DNA of 63,710 nt, the filler included, from Chrysochromulina tobinii (Eukaryota), in the NCBI GenBank assembly GCA_001275005.1. It is 4 parts of 4 records of this genome, joined end to end, with 100 filler letters (N's around TTAATTAATTAA, not from the genome) between each part and the next. Parts side by side here need not be neighbours in the genome. Positions count along the whole stretch, not along the records: positions 47,171 to 63,710 come from JWZX01001079.1; 3 more parts are not named here. One strand, written 5' to 3'. A program made the translations under genes and the position numbers. Below are positions 33,389-63,710 of the stretch, in pieces. Below the pieces are notes generated by a model that did no database searches, was not told the DNA's origin, and worked only from the letters and a program-made list of their open reading frames with translations. Numbering within the stretch: position 1 is the first letter of the stretch; the number at the start of each line of letters is the position of its first letter.

Positions 33389-33644
33389 TGAGTGTTCCAG
33401 GAGTATGTACGCGAAGCAATGCACACAGAGGCGCTCGTAGCGCAAAGCGGGTCGCCGTGAAGCAAACTTATCTCGATGTAATCTGAAAACGCAATCTGCT
33501 GCCGCCTCATCCATCTGTCCTTTTTTCGCGTCCTTTTGAGCGTCTACGAAACTTGAGGCATGTGGACTGGTCTGTAAAAACAGACAGCTGAACGCACTCG
33601 CGCACGGCACGGGCTGGGCGGGCGTGGCTATCTGACAGTCGAGA

Positions 33645-36600
33645 ATGGATGGTGGTGGTTCGGTCCCGCTCTCCGCCGTGCCCATCTTGCTGCAGATCTT
33701 GAGCACGCCCAACCACTACGCCCGCGACGAGGTGCTCACGCTGCTCTGTGACCTCGTCGGCTCGGCCTACGGTGCGGAGGGTGCCGCACTCGGTGCGACA
33801 ATCCGCGAGTCGGGCGGGCTGCTCACGCTCTCGTGGCTGCTCGTCGAGTCCGATCCCTCCGTTCAGAAGCAGGCGCTCTACATCATCGCCAACCTCGCCT
33901 CGGATGCGGTTGATCCACTCTCGCATCTGACCAAGTCGATGCTGCTGCAGTGTGAAGCCGAGTACCGGCTGCTGCCGTGCCTGGATTCGGATGACGACGA
34001 GGTGCTCTCGTACGCGTGCGCGGCGGTCCAGAACCTCTGCCACGACGCCATTTGGTCGCGCGTGCTCCTCGATCAGGATGTTGTGGGTTTGCTCGAGGAG
34101 CTGCTTGACAACAAGAACGAGCAGGTACAGCACTATGCGGCGGGCGCAATCAAGAACGTGGTCGCGGCGGCGGCGACGATCAAGGCCCAGGGAGGCGGTG
34201 CGCCAGGAAGGGAGGTTCCTATTTCGCTGGTGAGTGAGGCAGCCCTCCTGAAGGTAGAGGAGCGCGCGCGCAACGCGTCGCTCAAGACCATCCAGGAGCG
34301 CATCGCGTCGCGAAAGATCCAGCGGCAGGTGCGTGCCAGGGCCAAGGCGAAGGCAGAAGCCAAGGCGAGGGCGGAGGCCCAGGCCAAGGCGGAGGCCGAG
34401 GCGAAGGCGGCGGCCGAGGCGAAGGCGGCGGCCGCCGAGGAGCACCGGAAGGCAGCCGAAGAAGCCAAGGCAGCCAAGGAGGCTGCGGCGGCCGCGGCGG
34501 CCGAGGCGAAGGCGGCCGAGGCCGAGGCACAGAAGTTGCGCGCGGCGGAGAAGGCGGCGGCGGCCGAGAAGGCCGCGGCGGAGGCGGCGGAGGCCAAGGC
34601 CGCCGCGGCGGAAGCAGCTGCAAAGAAGGATGTGGAGGCGGCGGCCGCCGCCGCGGCGGCAGCAGAGGCGCAAGCCGAGGCGGAGGCGGAGGCGAAGCTG
34701 CAGGCGATCGAGGAGGAATTGAAGACCAAGCTGCAGGCGCTCGTTGCGGATTCGAAGATGGATCAGGCGAGCAAGGATGCGGCCAAGGCGGAGGCGGAGC
34801 GGGCTCACGAGGCAGCCAAGGTGGAGGCGGCCGCCGCGGCCGAGGCTGCTAAGGAGCAAGCCGCGCGGGGCCTCGCCCAGGCCCAGGAGACTGCCCGCGA
34901 GGCGGCTGAGGCACGCGCGACGGCAGCGGCCACAGTGGACCAGAAGCGCGCGGCCGAGACGCAGGCGACGCAGCGCGCCCAGTCGGCAAACGCGGCGGCC
35001 AGGGCCACAGCGGCCAAGGAGGCTGAGGAAAAGGAGCGTTTGGCTAAGGCCTACGAGGCGAACAAGGAGGCGGCGGCCGAGGCGGCAAAGGCGGCGGCGG
35101 CCGAGCGAGCAGCGGCGGAGGCGGCCTTGGCCGCAGCAGACGCGGAAACGGCGGCGCAGGCCAAGGCGGCCACTACGCTCCAGGCGGCAAAGCGAGGAAA
35201 GGAGGCCCGCGCCAGGGCGTCTCAGCTCAAGAAGGAGAGGCAGGAGGTGGTGGATGGGCAGGCGAAGGCGGCCACTACGCTGCAGGCGGCAAAGCGAGGA
35301 AAGGCAGATCGCTCCAAGGTGGCGCAGCTGAAGCAAGAGAGGAAGGAGGCGGCGCTCGCCAACCTCGAGAATGCCCTCAAGAACCTGGGCAACGAGGACG
35401 ACTGGCAAGGGAGTTGCGACGCATGTCGAAAGGCGATCGAGGAGGCGAAGAGGCTCAAGGAGCAAGGCATTGCGATCGACACGACGGAGGCGGAGAGGCG
35501 GCTCGAGGAGGAGGAGGCGGACGACGGGCTCTCCGAGACTTGGAATTTAGACGGCAAGGCGGCGGCCAAGATGTTCGGCATGTCGGGCGTCAACAAAATG
35601 ATTAAGCGCCAGACCGCGAAGCTCGCTACCAAGGCGAAGGAGCAGATCGAGCGCACACGGATTGCAGAGGAGGCGGCGCGGCTCGAGATGGAGGCCGAGG
35701 CGGAGTACCTTCGCTATCTCGCCGAGGCGGAGGCCGCAGCGGCCGAGGCCGAGGAGGCGGAAGCGCTCGAGGCGGCGATGGCAGCGGAAGCGGCCGAGGC
35801 GGCGGAAAGGGCCCTGGAAGCGGCCAAGGAGGCCCGAGCCGCCATTGCGCGTGCTCAGGCGATGTTCGAGACGGCGCAGTCACCTGAGGAAAAGGAAAAG
35901 GCGGAGCGCACTATGGCCGAGGCGGAGGCGAATGTGAAAGCCGCGGAGAAGGCTGCCGTAGCGGCTAGGATGAAAAAGATGACAGCAGCAGCCAAAGCAA
36001 CGGCCGCCGGTGTCAAGATGCGTCGGCGAGCTACGGAAGCTTCGGCGAAAGCGGCGGCACTCCAGAAGGCGTCGGCCTATGCGGCGGAGGCGGAGGCCAG
36101 TCTGTTAGCACTTGAGGCGAAGGGAATGGCTGCAGCCACCCCGTCGCCAGCCGCCGCGTCGCCAGCCGCCGCGCCGCCAGCCGCCGCGCCACCAGCCGCC
36201 GCGCCGCCAGCTGTTGCAGTCTCGTCATCGGCGGCAGCACCAGCTGAGATCCTGTCATCGGCGGTGGCGCCAGCTGCGGCCGATGTCGACCTCTCGACGA
36301 TCCCGCAGCACGCCAAGGCGCCCGAGACGATCGCGCGGCTGGAGAAGTACCTCGAAGCTTCCTTCCTCTTCCGCTCACTCGACGACGGCATTCGCCGCGC
36401 TCTCGTGCTTTCTATGGTCTCCAGCGTCATCCAGCCTGGCGAGCGCGTCATCGTGCAGGGCAGTCCGGGCGACTTCTTCTACATAGTGGACGAGGGTGCG
36501 CTCGAGTGCTTCGTGGCGGCCGAGGGCGCGCCGGCGCCGGGCGCCAAGGTGACCGAGTACGGGCCGGGATCCACCTTCGGCGAACTCGCCCTCATGTATG

Positions 36601-39600
36601 ACTGCCCGTGCAAGGCGTCCGTCGTCGCATGCACCAAGTGCGTGCTCTACGCGATCGAGCGTGAGGTATTCACAAAGCTCGTGCTCCAAAAGTACAGGCA
36701 GCAGCGCATGCGCTTCGAGCAGCTCACGGCAGGCATCGCGCTCTTCGGCACGATGAACGAATTCGAGCGCGCCGCCCTCGCCGATGGCTTCGACGAGGTT
36801 GTCTTCACCGCCGGCGCCGCCATCATCAACGCGGGAGATCACGGGCAGACCTTTTACGTCGTCCTCGAGGGCTCCGCCGTGGCGGTCCAGGTGGACGCGA
36901 CAGGCGTTGAGGTGGTGCTCGAGCGCTACGGCGCGGGCGGCCACTTTGGCGAGCTCGCCCTACTCCACAACGAGAAGCGCGCAGCGAGTGTGGTCGCGGA
37001 GACTGAATGCAGGTGTATTGTGCTCCACAAGAGAGCCTTTGCGGCGGCGGCGGCTGTCTCGTCTGAGGCGGCGAAGAAGGCGGTGGCGGAGGAGGCGGCG
37101 AAGGCGGCGGAGGCGGCGGAGGCCGCAAAAGCAGCGGAGGACTCGGCCGCGGCGGAGGCCTTGGATCTGGCCAACAAGCTGAAAGCTGCCAAGGTCGACC
37201 TGGGCCTAGCCGACAATGTGGAAGAGCGACGAGGGCTGAAACGCAAGGTGGCGGAGCTAGAAGAGGCGCTGACGACAGCAGTGGCGGTCCAGAAGGTGGC
37301 GGCTAAGCTTAAGGGCAAGGCCGAGCGGGCGGCCGTGGCGGCGAGGGAGGCGGCCGAGAAGGCCGCGAGGGAGGCGACCCTGAAGGCGGCGAAGGAGGAG
37401 GAGAAGGCGGTATCTGAACGGGCTGAGAAGGAGGCGAGGGAGGCGGCCGAGAAGGTGGCGTCGGCCGCCGCCGCCGCAAAAGGAGGAGCGGCGCGAGCAC
37501 GTTGGGAACGCGCCCGGGGGCGATCGCAGGCGGTCTCGGCCTTGGTTTCGGCGGGTGGTGACGCGAAGGCTGTGGCCGAAGCGGCGGCGGCGGCTGAGAG
37601 GGCGGCCGCGGCGGCGATTGCAAAAGCGGCGGCCGAGAAAGCGGCGAGGGACGCTTCCGATCTGGCGAGGTTGCAGGCGGCCTCTGCGCTCGCAGAGGAG
37701 CAAGCGGCAGCCGAGGAGGCGGCGGCGGCCAGGGCCGTGATCGAAGCCGAGGCGGCTGAGGCGGCCGCGGAGGCTGAGCGCGCCGCGGCGGAGCGGGCGG
37801 CGGACGCGGCGGCGGTGGACCCAGCCGCGCTTCGGGAGCGAAAAGAGCGTGAGGCCGCTGCCAACGCGGACAAGGAGAGGCGCCTGAAGTTCGAAGCCAT
37901 GCAACGGGCGGAGGAAGCCGAGGAGGAGAGTGACGACGATCTTGGACTGTCCGACCTGTGGGATGTGGACGGTGACAATGCGCAGAAGATGGCAAAGAGT
38001 GCGGGAGTCTTCGGCCTGGTGAGCAAAGCGAAGAGAGGGTTCAAAGCGAAGGCCAAGGGTGCAGCCAAGGACAAGGACAAGGCTGCGCCACCTGCTGCCG
38101 CGCCGGCGGCCGCCAGGGCTGCCCCAGCCACCGCCCCGTTCGCGGCCCCGACCGCAGCACTAGCGACAAGCGCGGCGCCAGCGCTGAGCGCGGAGGCGCA
38201 GGCAGCGGCGGCGCTGAGTCTCTTGCCCTCGCCAAAGGCCGCTCTGCTGCCTGCGCTGCTCGCAGTGCTTCGCGAGAGCAGCAGCAGCGAGGAGGCTCAG
38301 AGCGACGCGCTGTACCAGCTTGCCGAACTCACCAACGATGCCTACGACGAGGAGGCGATCGCGCTGTGCGAGTACATGCGCGCCACGGGCGCCGTGCAGC
38401 TCATTGCCAGCCGTCTCAGTAGCCCTGTGGTCTCGATCCATCAATACGCGCTCATGCTCGTGGGCAATCTCGCATCTGTTGCTGTCGACCCTGATGCTGA
38501 GAAGACAAAGGTATTGCTCAAGACGGTGGGCGCCTTCGGTCTGCTGCTGCCACACATCTTTTCCGAGGATTATATGACGCTCTTGTACGCACTGGGCTCT
38601 GTACAAAATCTGTGCACCGAGATCGCGTACGTTGAGCAGCTGCAGCAGGCGGGTGGGCTCGAGCGACTGCAGGCGATCCTCCAGCTGAACGATCCGCAGC
38701 TCGAGCCGTTTGCACGCGGCTGCCTGACCAACGTGACGCAGACCAAAGTGGTGACCACCCTCCAGCGGCGTGTCGAGAAGCGTAGCGGCAACGCCGCCAG
38801 CACTATCCAAGCGGCCGCGCGGCGCTGGTTGGTTGGCTTCCGCGAGAGGCGACGTCTCGCAGCGTTCGAGGCGGCGACACCGGCGCAGGTATCTCAACCA
38901 GCATTGCAAGCTCCCGAAAGGCCCCAAACCCCTGCCGAGGTCGTCGTGCAGGCGGTGATCGCTCAGAGTGTCGAAGCCGTCTCAAGACCATCCACCGCCG
39001 AGTTCATGGCAAGGGAGGAGGCAGCGCTGATGGTTGAGCTTGCAAACGCTCAGAAGGTTCTCGCCGAGGCCGAAGCCGCCGAGAAGGCACTGGTCGAGGC
39101 TTCGGCGGCGGAGGAACTCAATCATTTCGAGGCACAATTGGAGGTCGAGGAGGCGACAGTCACAGTACCTTCTGCCACCACAGAAGTAGAGGTCCTGGCA
39201 GGGGCGACGGCGGCAGCGCCTACTGAGGTAGTGGCGGCGATTGTCGCAGCGCCTGCTGCCACCGCTGAGGGGGCGGCAACCGAAAAGGTGGCCGCGGCCG
39301 AGAAGGTCGCAGCAGCCGAGGAAAACGCGACGGCCGAGAAAAAAGCGCTGGCCGAGAAGGCGACGGAGATAGAAAAGGCGGCGGCCGAGGCGAAGGCGGC
39401 CGCTGAGACAGAGAAGGTGGCTGTGGCCGAGAAGGCGGCAGCTCAAAAGGCGGCGGCCGAGAGAGCGGCGGCCGAGAGGGCGGCGGCGGCCGAGAAGGCG
39501 GCAGCCGAAAGGGCGGTGGTGGCCGAGAAGGCCGCGGCCGAAAAGGCGGTGGCCGACAAGGTAGCGGCCGAGAAGGCAGCAGCCGAGAGGGCAGCAGCCG

Positions 39601-41234
39601 AGAGGGCGGCGGCCGAGAGGGCTGCGGCCGAGAAGGCAGCGGCCGAAAAGGCGACGGCCGAGAAGGCGGCGGCCGAGAAGGCGGCGGCCGAGACAGCGGC
39701 GGCGGCGGCACGTGAGGTGCTGGTGGAGGCGACGGTGCAGTGGGTGATGGCAGAGGCGCTGCAGTTGGAGGCACGGAGGCAGATGGAAGAGAGGCAACGA
39801 AGGGCTGCGGCGGCAGCGGCGGGCCGTCGAAAAGTGCACAAGGCGGCACATGCCATCCGTGCGACGATTCGAATGCATGCCCTAGCAGAGGAGACGAGGG
39901 CCATTTCGAGGGCCGAAAAGGCTGTGCTCATTCGCAAGCTCGCGCTCGAAGAGTCTGCCTACGCTCTCGCCGTCGTCTGGGACCTCGCAATGAAGGAGTG
40001 TGATCTGTTGGCCGCCGAGAGGGTGGCAGCCGAGGCCGCAGCGGCTGAGGCAGCGATGGAGTCCGATCCCAAGATGAGGGCGCTCTTCGACAAGATTCTG
40101 ACGGAGCCGAGTCTCGAGGGCACAACGCTCGTCGACATGATGCGGGCGCTCACGAAGGCTCGTGGGCACGTGGGCCTCGCGTTCCTTCACCTGCAAAGGG
40201 CTCATTCCGAGCCTCGACCAGCATTCATCTCAACAGTAGCACTTCCCTCGGCTCGCACTGAGGCCGAGACTACGGCAGCTAAGGAAGCGGCAGCAAAGAA
40301 GGCGGCGGCTCAGGCAGCTGCGGCCGGCGCGACGGGCGCCGAGGCGCCGCTGCCTGAGGGGTGGATGCAGGTCAAGGCACCCGACGGGCGGACTTACTAC
40401 TTGATTCAGGGAGGCGGCAAGCCGCAGTTCGAGCGTCCGACGGAGCCCGCATCCGCATCGTTCGGCCTATCGGAAGGGCGGATTCCGTTCGGATCGTGGC
40501 CTGCTCGCGGCATGACGCCTTTGGCCTCTCTGCCGCCGCTACCTTCCACTCGACGTACCCAGGCGTGGTACGACCGGCAAGAACAGCTCCAAGAAAGGTT
40601 GAATGCGGGGCGGCTGTTACAGGAGGCTGCTGAGCAGCCTTTGCCGCTTCCAGCCATTGCTGACATCCAGCCTCAGCTGTGGCCCTCGACCACTTGGGCG
40701 GGATACGACTCGGCGAAGCGGATGAGAGGCCGCCACGACGGCAGTAACAGTGCGCACGGAGGCCTGCTTGGGGGGTCAAATGCTGCCGGTGGAGCAACAA
40801 AGCTTATAGACCCGACCTCATTTGAAACGCCCACCGCGCCAAAGGTAGCAGCTACCTCCAAGGCGAGCCCGCGCGTGCGGATAGCGCGCCAACAGGCAGA
40901 GTACAAGGGCGACACTCATCAACCGAAGGAGGCGACAAGCTTGAGCCCCCAGCTGATCTTGCCCAACCTAACACCTCGCTCGGGGATGGGAGCTGCGCGA
41001 ACGGCAATGGAGCGCCAGTTGGCAGCGTACCATGAGATCTACGGACAAGACCAACGTGTTGTCCATCATCACCAGCGGCTCAAGCCAAACTTAGTCAGGC
41101 CTGCACTGTCAGCAGAGACGCGTCCAGAAGCCACACTTCTACCACACGTCAATGTGCTGGGAAGCGGGGCCGGGGGTAAAGGTAAGGGTACAAGTACGAA
41201 AAAGGCGCATGCGTACTTTGAAGCGTATGTATGA
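33645..41234 (+). CDS. 2529-aa multidomain protein: two ARM modules, IQ motifs, tandem cNMP-binding domains, WW domain, Ala/Glu/Lys coiled coils
   Basis: Uninterrupted ORF; IQ-like [11 protein letters not shown] and [12 protein letters not shown]; c[11 protein letters not shown] and [40 protein letters not shown]; (AEKAA)n. Confidence 0.85.
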
Positions 41235-47170: not shown

Positions 47171-48183
47171 CCCCCCCGCCGGCAGCCGCACCGGAGAGCG
47201 CCGCGTCGGGCAGCGCCGTGTCGGGCGCGGAGACCGGCGGGCTCGACGCCGCGCTGCGCGCCAATGTCGAGTCACAGCTCGAGCGGCTTCTGGCGCAGCT
47301 CGAAGATCTGGAAGAGCTCAAGGAGGACCTGTCGGAGGAGGAGTACGTCGAACGGCCTCAAATGGCCTCGGAGTGCCTCTTGATTGCCTCTTGATTGCCT
47401 CTGATTGCGTCTGATTGCGTCTGATGGCCTCGGAGTGCCTCTTGATTGCCACTGAGGACCTCTGAGAACACTTTCGAGTGCCTCCCTCATCATCTCTGAG
47501 TGCCTCCCTCATCATCTCTGAGTGCCTCCCTCATCATCTCTGAGTGCCTCCCTCATCATCTCTGATTGCCTCCCTCATCATCTCTGATTGCCTCCCTCAT
47601 CAGGTACAAGGCGACCAAGGAGGACACACTGGCGCAACTCAAGGAGTTCCAAACGTCCCTCGCCAAGATGGCCTCGGGCTCGATGACGCTGCAGTCGAAC
47701 CTCGAAAAGACGCGGCTCGCCGTCTCGGCGGCCGTCTCCGGCGCCTTCCAGACACCCGAGGTCAGCCGGCCCTTCGCCTCCACGCAGCCCGCCGCATGCA
47801 AGTGCTCACCACGGCGCCCTCCCCTCCCGTTTCCCCACAGGTCATCCGGCTCTTCGCCTCCAAGCAGCCCGCCGCGATGCGCCGCCGGCTCGCCGAGATG
47901 GAGCGAGATGTCAAGCTCGGCAAGCTCGCGGCCGCGGCCTTCGACGGCATGAAGTCCGAGATGCTGGTCGCACTCAAGAAGCTCGGGGAGCCGCTCAGCG
48001 CGAGCGAGGAGGCCTTCCTGGGCGCAAACAAGTCCGCGTCCCTCTCGGAGTTTGAGGCGGTCGATGATAATGCGGACCAGGTGAGCCAGCTGCCGGTGAA
48101 CCTCTGATTGCGTCTGATTGCGTCTGATTGCGTCTGATGGCCTCCCTCATCAGGTGAGCCAGCTGCCGGTGAACCTCTCGTGA
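47171..48183 (+). CDS. LZIC: LZIC (leucine zipper and ICAT-homologous) protein, 5' truncated; introns 47343-47603, 47761-47840, 48081-48153
   Basis: Spliced: NVESQLERLLAQLEDLEELKEDLSEEE|YKATKEDTLAQLKEF..AFQTPE|VIRLFASKQP..LKKLGEPLSASEEAFL. Confidence 0.9.
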
Positions 48184-48690: not shown

Positions 48691-50388
48691 ATGACGACTT
48701 CCGCGTCACAGTGGATATACCCAAGTTTGGCGCTCAACTGCATCTTCTTCGTGCACCTCGTTGTGCGCGGCAATCTTGTCCCATGTAGTGCTGTGCCATG
48801 TTTCGTGGCGACGCCGTCTGCAAGTTCAGAGACCCCGTCTGCGAGGTCAGCGACCCCGTCTGCAAGCTCAGAGGCCGAATCCATGCCTCCAAGGGACCCA
48901 CAGAGTTTGCCAATCTGGGCCAGGTTCGCACGGTATCCAGGGCCCGATTGGAACAAGCTCTTGGCCGACGAGAAGGTGGAGCGAAAACCCCATCGAACTT
49001 CTCCGCCGACGCCGCCGTATCCGCCGCCAGGGCCCACTCAGACGGTTGGTTCGCCAACTTGCACGCATTTGCTGGAGTGCAGCCTCTCCAAGGGTATGCG
49101 GTCCAAGGTGTACCAAGCGTTCCAGAATGGATACACGCACCGGATCCCAGACGAACTTGGATACGAGAATGGCATCCGAGACCTCGCCGACGGCGGCAGC
49201 GAGCTCCTCGTCCCGATTCGAAAGCAAATCATGCCGCCCGCTGCCAACATCCAGCTTGACTGGAAGCCTGCGCCGTGGCCCACACGCATCGATCTCAACC
49301 ACCTCAACTGGGCAGCCCTTCCAAATGGGGAGAGGTTCCGCGAGTGTGGGAAATCGCATGCACTCACTAATGAAGTGCACTTATACTGCAAGTGCGTGCT
49401 CCGCTTGCGTCGACCGTTTGCTCCTGGAGCCCCCACCACCTCGAAGCGGGCGCCTCAGGAGCCGTCCTTTGTTTGCCCGCAGGTTTTTCACAAAGCAGGC
49501 CCTCTTGTGGAATAAGGACTATTGGCCGGGTGCGGAGCCCTACGACGACATCCCCGACCACGTGTTCGATCGGCCAGACGTGCGGCTGGTGCTTGATCTA
49601 GGTGCCGGCAACGGCAACCTCGCCGTCAACTTGTTCCGGCGATATGGCGATCGCGTCATCACGGTGTCCGCCACGCTCATCGTCGCCGCCGAGGCAGGCA
49701 CGCTCACGCCGCCCTTCCTGCAACGGATGACATGCAACTGATTACATGCTGATGACATGCAACTGATGACATGCAACTGATGACATGCTGATTACAGGCA
49801 CGCTCACGCCGCCCTTCATGCAACTGATCGCGGCGCGTGGCTTCCCCACTGTGGCGGTCGACATCTACTCATTCTTCCCCTTTGGTGAATCAACGTTTGA
49901 CGTGGTCCACACGAGCTGGGTCTATCACAGCGGCTTCACGCGCCACGCCATCATGGAGATGTGAGCACTCGCCACGTGATTCCACCCGGGCCTCACAAAC
50001 GCTGTCACGTGATTCGAACCTGGCCTCACAAACACGCTGTGTGCCTGGCTGAGCGGCGGTACCCGATCGGTTCCGTTGGGCAGGTACTGATTACAAATGA
50101 TTACATGCTGATTACATGCTGATTACATGCTGATTACCGTTGGGCAGGTACCGCGTGCTGCGCCCCGGCGGGTACTTGATCCATACGGTGTGGGATAAGA
50201 TGGCCTCCCTCCGGGGCACGCTGCTCCTCGAGTCGCTCGCCGCGAAGATGAATTGGAAGCTTCTCGCTCATTACGAGACCATGAAGGGGCATAATGTCAC
50301 CAAGGCGAGGCTCCGGGGGGACAAGGTGCCCTACGACTGCTACAAGACCGTCTACCAGATGCCGAGCTACAAGTACTCGAAGAGGTAG
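48691..50388 (+). CDS. Type II membrane class I SAM-dependent methyltransferase; introns 49392-49482, 49698-49797 (GC-AG), 49961-50147
   Basis: N-terminal hydrophobic anchor; VLDLGAGNG, PFMQLIAARG, FPFGESTFDVVH, EM|YRVLRPGGYL assembled across introns. Confidence 0.82.
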
Positions 50389-60824: not shown

Positions 60825-63710
60825 TCAACTGAGAGAAGTTTTCTCGAGCGCGCCGCTCAGCTTGCTTGTTGCCCCATCGGCGCCGTCGCGGGCGGCGCGC
60901 GCCGCGCCGAGCGCACTCGAGAGGTGGATGATCCACAAGTTACGTTCCTCCTCAGTCGGGGCGGCAAGCACGACGCCGCCGTCGGGCGCGCCGTCCCGAG
61001 CGGTGAGGCGGAACGCGTAGGGCAGATTGTCCGACGGAGGCTGCGACGACCAGTCATCAGAGGTCGTCAGAGGTCATCAAAGGTCATCAGAGGTCATCAG
61101 AGGTCATCAGGGCAGATTGTCCGACGGAGGCTCTGGGGAAATGGGTGCTACGACCAGTGGGGCAGGGGAGGGGGCGCCCAGGACGACGCACGGTTGAGGC
61201 GCGCGTCAGCACAGATCAGAACGCGGCGCCGCCACGCGCGCTCGCGGCACTGTGGGGAGATCGGGGAGATCGATGGGAGATCGATGGGAGATCGATGGGA
61301 TAAGAGGGGGTCGCGTCGTCCCGGGCAGCGCACCGTGGCTTGCTCCACCCGATCGAAGCCGGAGAGCGGTACGATGCCGCGCGCGTGCTGCGGAGGGTCG
61401 TCGGCGTTCTGGTAGTACACGATCGTGCCCTCGTCGCGCAGGCGGAAGTGGCGAGCGACCCAATCCCGTGCCTGCCCTGTCTCCGCCTCGCTCCGCTGCG
61501 CAATGTGCACCTGATGAGGGAGGCAATCAGCATCCCATCAGAGAGGCAATCAGAGGCCATCCTGATCGAGCAGTCTCCGCCTCGCTCGCACTGATGAGGG
61601 AGGCAATCGGCATCCCATCAGAGATGCACTCGGCACCTTGGAGGCTCGCTTATAGAGGAGGCCGCTCAACTCGGTGCCTCGCGATGTGGCGTCTTCGGCC
61701 GCACTGGCGGAGCTACTCGGTACTTTGATGACCTCTGATTGCCTGGCATGAGTGGAAACTCCCCCGCCGGCGGTCGCGGCGGTCGCGACGGGCAGCGGCG
61801 AAGAGGGCGGCGCCACGGCGGACGAGGAAGCCGACAGCTGCGCGCCACAGGCGCAGAGGACGCGTATCCAGTCATCGCGTTCCCGCGCCGAGTCCGACGC
61901 GAGGTGGTACCTGATGAGGGAAGCCATCCGAGGTCATCAGAGGTTATCAAGAGGCAATCAGGTGAGCGGTGCCTGATGAGGGAAGCCTTTAGGGAAGCCA
62001 TTCCTCGGAGGTCACATCAGAGGCACCACTCGGCAGGTCATCCGAGGTCATCCGAGGTCATCCGAGGCCATCCGAGGTCATCCGAGGTCATCCGAGGTCA
62101 TCAGGGGCCATGCGTACGTCCGATTGCTCGTGTGCACCGCAAACGAATAGTGGCGGGCAAGCGAATTCTCTCCCTCGCCATGAGGCTGGATGATCAGTGG
62201 CGTGGGCCGCGCGCCGGCGCCATTGCTCATCACGGCGCTATGGCTCGACTCGCGACCACCGTTGGTGCCGCCGCCGCCGCTGCCGTGCGCCACGGCCGCG
62301 CCCGCACCGCCGTGGTGAGCACTTGCATGCGCGGGAGCGGCCGCGCCCGCACCGCCGTCGGGTGCCGTGGCGCCATAGTGGGCGCCGTAGTGGGCGCCGC
62401 TGCTCAGCTCGGCGCCGCTGTCAGACTTGCCGAACGCCCTTACACTGGCTGACGGGCTCGAGCCGCCGCTGATCGAGATGACGCCGAGAGAGAGGGGGCG
62501 GGGCGTCGTGGTGAGCGCTTGCATGCAACGCACGCCATCAGAGGCAATCAACGCACCTGCTCGAGCGGCACCCACTCCAACTTCTGATGAGGGACACAAT
62601 CACATGCAATCAGAGGCACTCAAGGCACCTGATCGAGATGACGCCGAGAGGCTGGAATGGGTTGGACATCTCGGCCGCGTAGTAGTAGAAGAGCTCGCCG
62701 TCGCACAGGCAAAAGTAGCGCCTCTTCCAGGACGGGACCCGCCGCCCCTTTTTGTAGAGATGGCCCTGCGAACCGAGGCCACGGGATGCGATGAGATGAA
62801 TTGGGAGATGCGATGAGATGCATTGGGAGATGCGATGAGATGCATTGGGATGCGATGAGATACGCCGAGTGACCACTCCGGGGTCACTCGGCGTCAGAGT
62901 GGTCACTCGGCGTCACTCAGCCGTCACTCAGCCGTCACTCTGCGGCCACTCAGCGGCCGCTCTGAGGAGCTCTCAGCGGCACCCACCTGCTTGGTGCACA
63001 CTCGATGGAGTGACTGGTGCAGCGCCGTCTCGTCTTCGCCGAACTCGGCGCCGTGTTGGGCGTCTGCCTCCACAAAGTAGCAGAAGAGCGACGAGGCCGC
63101 CAGCGCCGGGATGGCCACGCACTGCTGCAGGTAGCGCTCGAGCGCCACGCGTCGCTCCTCGACGAAGCTCGGGTGAAGGTTGCCGAAGGCGCGCTTCGCT
63201 GGGAGGGCCTGCGGCACTAGCGGGCCGAACTCCTTGCGCAGCAGCTGGTCCAGCAGGTTGAAGTGCTTGTACCTGTGGGGAGAGGCGAGGGCGCCGTGGT
63301 GAGCGCGTGCATGCACGGCAGGCCATCAGCATGCAATCAACGTACCGTCGCTCGGAGCGAGAGAGGGCGCCGGGGTGAGCGCTTGCATGCACGGCAGGCC
63401 ATCAGCATGCAATCAACGTACCGTCGCTCGGATCGCAGCGTCGTCTGCACGCCGTGCACGAGCAGCACGGAGTCGACCAGGTACGTGACGTACTCGTTGC
63501 CATGCCCACCCTCGCGCTGACGCTGGGTACCGGCGAGGCGCACCGAGTGGAGCACAACGTCCTTTGATCGCGCACGCAGCTCGGTGCCCGTCGGCGACAA
63601 GGGCGGCCCTCGCCCCTCGAGCGCCGTGGTGAGCGCCTCGTCGCCCGCGTGCATGCCCACACCGATCGTGAGCGCTGTGGTGAGCAGCCCGCCGCCGAGC
63701 TCACCACGGC
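60825..63710 (-). CDS. PX + two PH domain protein, 5' end beyond the window; introns 63273-63421, 62766-62986, 62469-62628, 61911-62117, 61511-61636, 61041-61333
   Basis: PX: YVTYLV..ERR|YKHFNLL..LPAKR..FVEERRVALERYLQ; PH1: GHLYKKGRRVPSWKRRYFCL..RT|YHLASDSARERDDWI; PH2: SGLLYKR..WVARHFRL..LAAPTEEERNLWI. Confidence 0.87.

Follow-up and report, generated by a model that had tools for sequence, protein, structure and literature searches.

How new introns arise is an open question; unspliced by-products of the process are rarely seen, as selection is expected to purge them. Among the closest described systems, introners are reported, in the accessible parts of PMC9860276, to be spliced efficiently and to be flanked, where duplications occur at all, by ones of 3-9 bp. 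The same parts describe a Chrysochromulina introner family with a 4-bp duplication and no inverted repeats, and an introner family of Aureococcus sp. that adds four residues. Introner classes of Polarella carry fixed duplications of 3, 4, 5 or 8 nt, according to the available portion of bioRxiv 10.1101/2020.10.14.339549, and the introner filter given in the accessible text of PMC12130899 calls for similar intron sequences in at least four unrelated genes. Introns attributed to break repair in Daphnia pulex are described in the available sections of PMC4202315 as having repeats of 4-12 bp and AT-rich inserts mostly of unknown source, all 90 of them being spliced; under fate 1 of that account, inserts without splice signals stay unspliced and are expected to be purged by selection. 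End joining by Pol theta leaves templated insertions of 3-30 bp with microhomology, copied mostly from adjacent DNA, and its first tracts rarely exceed 10 bp (PMC7165422, available sections). Finally, in tandem AGGT duplication, as outlined in the accessible part of PMC3443670, a duplicated exon stretch supplies the splice sites, and imprecise cases add coding nucleotides.

An intron-family fragment that is fixed in frame within coding sequence shows the insertion process where splicing is not required, and it helps to separate transposon activity from error-prone repair. Such a fragment is present in the DNA analysed here, a 63,710-nt stretch from Chrysochromulina tobinii (the window). It is a 45-nt segment in a minus-strand PX-PH-PH gene at the window's end, the domains having been assigned by Pfam on the sister-lineage protein P0016. 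The segment is a real, old and fixed intron fragment in coding sequence and not a recent failed intron, and it has probably never been an intron itself. In literature outside subscription journals and introner supplements, no description of exonised intron fragments in this organism's group was found.

The segment is organised around a perfect direct repeat with a period of 45 nt, formed on the minus strand by two identical 21-nt copies, copy 1 at 62358-62338 and copy 2 at 62313-62293, and separated by a 24-nt spacer at 62337-62314. Copy 1 holds the codons for GGAGAA, the second Gly of which is Ser in many alleles, and the spacer comprises 17 nt of intron motif and 7 nt of uncertain origin. 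On inspection, no AG was seen in the 24-nt spacer, nor in either 21-nt copy of the window allele, and the frame stays open through the segment (DGGAGAAAPAHASAHHGGAGAAV) and on into the last PH strands. Re-inspection thus upheld the sequence claims of a first-pass annotation of this DNA, namely the 21-nt repeat, the 45-nt period, the missing AG and the open frame. A GT at 62352, inside copy 1, sits in a donor-like context, and no use of it as a donor was seen in the RNA joints listed. The spacer opens with 7 nt that agree at 5 of 7 positions with intron copies of the same gene and could equally be explained as a fold-back of copy 1. A quasi-palindrome lies at 62331-62350; it was not counted as a fold-back scar, because this stretch, being GC-rich, has many such pairs (8 within 111 nt). 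Eight other exact repeats of at least 20 nt with a period of 3n and no intron module occur among the 74 repeats listed for the window, so the 21-nt duplication alone is weak evidence and may not be a target duplication.

The link with introns lies in a 23-nt exact match to an intron 3' motif (62330-62308, minus strand). This 23-mer includes a branch-point-like CTCAC, is identical to the intron copy at 47794-47816, and overlaps copy 2 with its last 6 nt. When up to 3 mismatches are allowed, 8 copies of the motif occur in the window and none in 100 dinucleotide shuffles; apart from the exonic copy, all 7 are located within introns or intron-like stretches. It recurs, always in sense orientation, in introns of three window genes and in the contig L001. 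Comparison of the exon with 10 intron copies gave a longest exact match of 24 nt, compared with a maximum of 14 nt in 500 triplet shuffles, and Markov models place the chance count of the motif match expected in the window below 1e-7. Across the 30 nt from the start of the spacer through the overlap, 26 of 30 positions match the best intron copies. The nearest motif copies lie 196 nt away, in a polymorphic intron, and about 1 kb away.

The exonic copy consists only of the middle of the intron motif, without donor module or pyrimidine tract. Copy 2 replaces the tract, and the pyrimidine share after the motif is 42% here versus 60-91% in 6 other copies; at the other motif copies a pyrimidine tract follows, and then an AG 26-53 nt past the branch-like A. 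The first-pass statement that exon and introns carry the same cassette is therefore correct as regards the shared motif, exact over 23 nt, and overstated in that only its middle is present. The microhomology proposed at the junction was confirmed: the last 6 nt of the motif are the first 6 nt of copy 2, and 0 of 400 random flanks reach such an overlap. At the left junction of the 45-nt insert there was no measurable overlap.

Searches of large collections returned few further matches. A scan of a prokaryote collection (596 billion bases) yielded one, a 22-mer in bacterial coding DNA (L009), which is a chance match. A scan of a viral collection also yielded one, in L001, where the motif stands with an intron-like tail at the contig end.

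RNA contigs from 3 of 4 runs (X13 record 1, X14 record 4, X16 record 9) cross the exon at 62114-62468 (minus strand) with 0 gaps. This exon, which spliced RNA contigs keep in full, codes for the long low-complexity loop of PH domain 1 and for the later strands, and the RNA check that the first-pass annotation had put forward thus found the segment unspliced. The X14 contig is spliced on both sides of the exon, and it therefore represents mRNA and not DNA. Four of the six runs found were mapped, including X17, which has no listed piece across the site and is uninformative; runs X19-X21, with nearly none of the query words present, were left out. All runs are mixed-culture samples, maybe of one strain, and their contigs hide rare forms.

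Six introns of the gene are skipped at GT-AG ends by RNA contigs, the real upstream donor being 62628. Among the 15 of 21 RNA joints listed there is no 62352/62280 or 62628/62280 joint, and alternative or non-canonical splicing of the 45-nt segment was rejected, as no joint among these 15 matches it. The claim that use of the AG at 62280 would shift the frame holds if that AG is paired with the GT in copy 1 (73 nt), and fails if it is paired with the donor at 62628, which would give an in-frame skip of 189 nt. An intron piece can accordingly sit unspliced in a gene, as the RNA contigs demonstrate and as had been proposed.

The 15 residues encoded by the segment occur in 13 of 13 sister-lineage proteins that cover the site, the sister being 87-89% identical over the exon, and in 17 of 17 own-lineage alleles that cover it. 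The sister sample consists of the 15 listed members of a 24-member cluster, 2 of which do not reach the site. For the own lineage, 15 of a 42-member cluster were listed and 18 proteins were examined, including the window's own; one of these ends in the upstream intron, and P0046, which starts past the site, was left out of the count. Loci L003, L004, L005, L006 and L008 carry the segment unchanged. A recent insertion was rejected on the presence of the residues in the sister lineage and in every own allele covering the site. Nor do these 13 of 13 and 17 of 17 proteins support a failed intron that is recent and has freshly duplicated its target, and orthologs that share the 15 residues are what the first-pass annotation had itself named as evidence against its reading. 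The segment likely predates the split from the sister lineage and arose once.

Because the empty site is absent from all 30 covering proteins (30/30) and from the five loci L003, L004, L005, L006 and L008, the insertion is inferred from homology. The segment is fair evidence that the intron-making process can deposit pieces regardless of splicing.

The perfect form of the repeat is a single allele and does not mark the segment as recent, since the repeat is imperfect in most alleles seen. Copy 1 encodes GGASAA in 6 of 17 alleles of the own lineage and, in the sister lineage, in 13 of 13 proteins (Ser for Gly in 19 of 30), and copy 2 of the sister reads GGAPGAAAA or longer. The Gly in copy 1 may itself be ancestral and have persisted as an old polymorphism, and the perfect repeat is not established as derived. 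Among 212 stored proteins, 30 contain the peptide, and these belong without exception to the two lineages. Homolog searches, a metagenome scan (7 loci) and a search of representatives (150 of 210 hits listed) gave no lineage between the sister group and unalignable outgroups. The loops of distant orthologs are unalignable, and BLASTP with P0037 gives a gap at the site of 25 residues, not of 15.

The architecture of the host gene offers a setting in which such an addition may be harmless. Orthologs of the PX-PH-PH gene add the N-terminal domains PF16561 and PF04739. The 45-nt segment lies in the exon after the first half of PH domain 1, in a loop between PH strands that measures 109-116 residues in the two lineages and 23-97 in 19 more distant rows. 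A predicted model of allele P0044, weak at a mean pLDDT of 52, places strands at 28-56 and 150-177 and coil at 57-149. Variable sites among alleles amount to 1 of 8 and 3 of 8 for the motif-derived codons, and to 15 of 87 and 6 of 92 for the whole loop; the motif-derived codons vary about as freely as the rest of the loop. The segment is probably selectively neutral, and it is likely tolerated within a PH loop predicted to be disordered. The same loop holds, at 62372-62395 of the window, a 12-nt tandem duplication (GAHY twice) that neither L008 nor the sister lineage has; short duplications are often acquired by this loop.

The gene also contains spliced introns of the same family, one of which varies among alleles. 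The intron at 62628-62469 (minus strand) carries the motif at 62526-62504; its AG comes from a perfect 22-nt duplication of the end of the upstream exon. It is present in 13 own-lineage proteins and maybe in one sister-type protein, and absent from 3 own-lineage proteins (P0044, P0054, P0058) and from 13 of 13 covering sister proteins. The sister-type read-through P0018 runs into this intron, which may reflect a shared polymorphism or a chimeric assembly. Since presence of the intron varies, recent or ongoing activity is indicated, either of the insertion process or of precise loss between the repeats. Its gain after the lineage split was considered as well, and is weakened by its absence in the 3 own-lineage proteins and by the P0018 read-through. 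The intron has a simple form of 88 nt in L003 (482-569); in the window and in L008 (652-811) it has an extra 72-nt piece, absent in L003, whose last part is exon-like and similar to the end of the upstream exon.

Another spliced intron, at 63421-63273 (minus strand), holds two motif copies (63390 and 63314) and is a candidate local template about 1 kb upstream of the segment. It is also found in the sister lineage, where its read-through, LPCMQVLTTA, agrees with the variant of the motif that the exon carries. As the sister shares this intron, the template would have stood about 1 kb away in the common ancestor, judging from protein letters only. A 76-nt unit, made up of the start of this intron and 11 nt of the upstream exon, occurs in 2 copies in the window, 2 in L004, 4 in L005 and 3 in L006; its copy number varies between assemblies that are otherwise more than 99.5% identical, as an unstable repeat or as assembly variation.

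Comparable inserts are found elsewhere in the window. In another gene, on the plus strand, an intron-like insert at 47759-47875 has the identical 23-nt motif, a pyrimidine tract, an AG and a 37-nt flanking duplication. An intron-like insert at 49695-49828, with a 34-nt duplication, would by prediction give a GC donor and not a GT. Altogether, ten duplication-flanked inserts show duplications of 15-37 nt, spacers of 24-138 nt and differing modules with differing start and stop points; they were picked by eye and from a scan for repeats of at least 15 nt, so that short duplications are unsampled. Left-junction overlaps with other copies at the 7 measurable inserts are 3, 5, 0, 3, 3, 4 and 1 nt, mostly not at splice sites, and for 4 of the 7 no more than 14 of 400 random flanks give such an overlap, while right-junction overlaps at true introns are inflated by the conserved AG|GT. 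In the 4 of 4 regions tested, terminal inverted repeats are absent at the ends.

We regard it as somewhat probable that the segment is an intron fragment put in place long ago by templated insertion guided by microhomology, and then kept in mRNA and tolerated in a disordered PH loop; the insertion, its template, the template-switch mechanism and the neutrality of the result are what we infer. A polymerase engaged in repair or replication would first have copied the exon stretch of 21 nt and then moved over to an intron of the family, probably intron 63421-63273 of the same gene. There it would have copied some 24-30 nt of the branch-point region before re-annealing upstream at the shared 6-nt word, leaving the target duplicated. 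No intron would have formed because the polymerase left its template before the pyrimidine tract and AG, and the event would have survived because the 45 nt keep the frame, bring no stop and fall in a disordered loop. Re-entry at AG|GT, or an AG in the duplicated exon, could have produced the gene's true introns, likely by the same process.

Comparison with repair systems reveals both kinship and distance. Like the scars of Pol theta or SD-MMEJ, the segment combines an insert in the 3-30-bp range, identical to other genomic DNA, with a direct-repeat scar; the right junction has the 6 nt of microhomology seen in 0 of 400 random flanks, the left one being beyond measurement. Unlike those scars, its putative template is not adjacent but 0.2-1 kb away or at another locus, and the likeness is one of sequence pattern. 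Against the template switch stand tracts mostly below 10 nt per round and distal templates below 0.1% (PMC7165422, available sections), the shared template here being about 1 kb off. With the Daphnia pulex gains the system shares exonic insertion between direct repeats, presence/absence polymorphism and the unspliced fate, and differs in that the insert here derives from an already existing intron family and has become fixed. It differs from tandem AGGT duplication in that the two copies enclose a foreign intron fragment and no AG precedes the GT.

Next to templated insertion, the best-surviving explanation, although an unlikely one, is an introner placed by staggered-cut insertion with a 21-nt target duplication, truncated or without a usable AG, and so an old failed intron. 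The system resembles introners in its repeated intron sequence in unrelated genes, in the duplications that flank many introns and in splice sites co-opted from the duplicated exon. The sense-oriented motif occurs in introns of at least three window genes and in L001, a count at the scale of the window to be set beside the four or more genes of the introner filter, and introners that add residues are known (legend to Fig. 2F-G of PMC9860276). On the other hand, the duplications are variable, at 15-37 nt, in contrast with the 3-9 bp given for DNA-transposon introners in the accessible parts of PMC9860276 and with the fixed 3, 4, 5 or 8 nt of the Polarella classes in the available portion of bioRxiv 10.1101/2020.10.14.339549. 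Rather than whole elements, the inserts comprise module fragments and module mixtures, and they start and stop at differing module points. Four introner features are lacking: a spliced-out copy, the 45-nt copy being unspliced and adding 15 residues; end-to-end similarity, which is confined to 23-30 nt of the middle; a short fixed duplication; and terminal inverted repeats, absent from the 4 regions tested. Two other exonic fragments, described below, have no clear duplication, and one of them is antisense. A retroelement-type insertion with a variable duplication is a conceivable variant.

It is improbable that the segment descends from a once-spliced intron, with its donor GT in copy 1 followed by motif, pyrimidine tract and AG, that was deprived of its 3' end and so became an in-frame part of the exon. 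The donor-like context of the GT in copy 1 fits such a history, as do the insert at 47759-47875, which has the same layout with its 3' end intact, and the frequent rearrangement of the gene's introns, exemplified by the 2, 2, 3 and 4 copies of the 76-nt unit in the window, L004, L006 and L005. This history requires a second event, however, and leaves as coincidence the 6-nt word shared by the motif and the exon upstream of the GT (0/400); no spliceable allele was found among 30 proteins or 5 loci.

Equally doubtful is an ancestral low-complexity coding sequence whose match is due to chance, or an exon that itself seeded the intron motif. The residues are common to all near orthologs, Gly/Ala repeats arise easily, exon-like pieces do enter introns (the internal piece of 62628-62469, in the window and L008 and not in L003), and a 22-mer arose once by chance in bacterial coding DNA (L009). 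Against chance stand the expected count below 1e-7 in the window, the single bacterial match from 596 billion bases and the restriction of the peptide to 30 of 212 stored proteins from only these two lineages. As for the exon as source, the family has one source and many possible fragments, which makes a source within the window improbable.

Templated insertion of intron fragments may have left further traces in exons. An intron library of 25 stretches was compared with the remaining 59,137 bases of the window, 45-nt margins being masked, and 5 matches of at least 14 nt were found, 3 of them of at least 16 nt; in 20 shuffles there was 1 match of 16 nt, and the two 14-nt matches are at chance level. 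All three longer matches fall in RNA-retained exons of the PX-PH-PH gene, at 62308-62328, at 63621-63636 and, antisense, at 61723-61738. The second candidate (63621-63636, minus strand) is a 16-nt exact match to the intron copy at 63314 and encodes LTTAL in the linker before the PX domain. The third (61723-61744, plus strand) matches the gene's own intron 61334-61040 exactly over 16 nt and continues into another intron module; it lies in the linker between the PH domains, in RNA-retained exon 61633-61906, and is kept in L003 and L008. Both are much weaker than the main fragment and have no clear duplication.

Two details of this region were also recorded. LTTAL, which matches the intron motif, is found twice, 51 nt apart (63621-63636 and 63674-63685), in the linker before the PX domain, and orthologs P0068 and P0072 are without it. 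A reverse-complement 12-mer at 63699-63710 has a counterpart in ortholog codons of L002, and short matches can therefore be coding chance.

A broader reading is offered tentatively, as a possibility that falls short of even odds: introns may spread without a transposase, microhomology-guided template switching copying intron pieces between duplications of 15-37 nt in a splicing-blind manner, with exonic fragments in either orientation and in-frame ones fixed as new residues of disordered linkers. If so, the PX-PH-PH gene would hold three such fossils beside an intron whose gain or loss among alleles continues. Taken alone, the 45-nt segment is one old, probably neutral patch of 15 residues. 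Should many such fragments exist genome-wide, intron gain and linker growth would be tied to one mutational process in wild populations, for which allele data are already available.

Two observations concern other DNA. The viral-collection contig L001 (1-1560) has at its end some 300 nt of eukaryote-style DNA, which include the intron motif and a duplication-flanked array of 10-nt repeats; its remainder looks prokaryotic by eye, as in a chimeric assembly or an integrated element. Within the window, positions 33636-41234 on the plus strand contain a stop-free frame of 2,532 codons with a strong purine skew and many Ala/Glu/Lys repeats.
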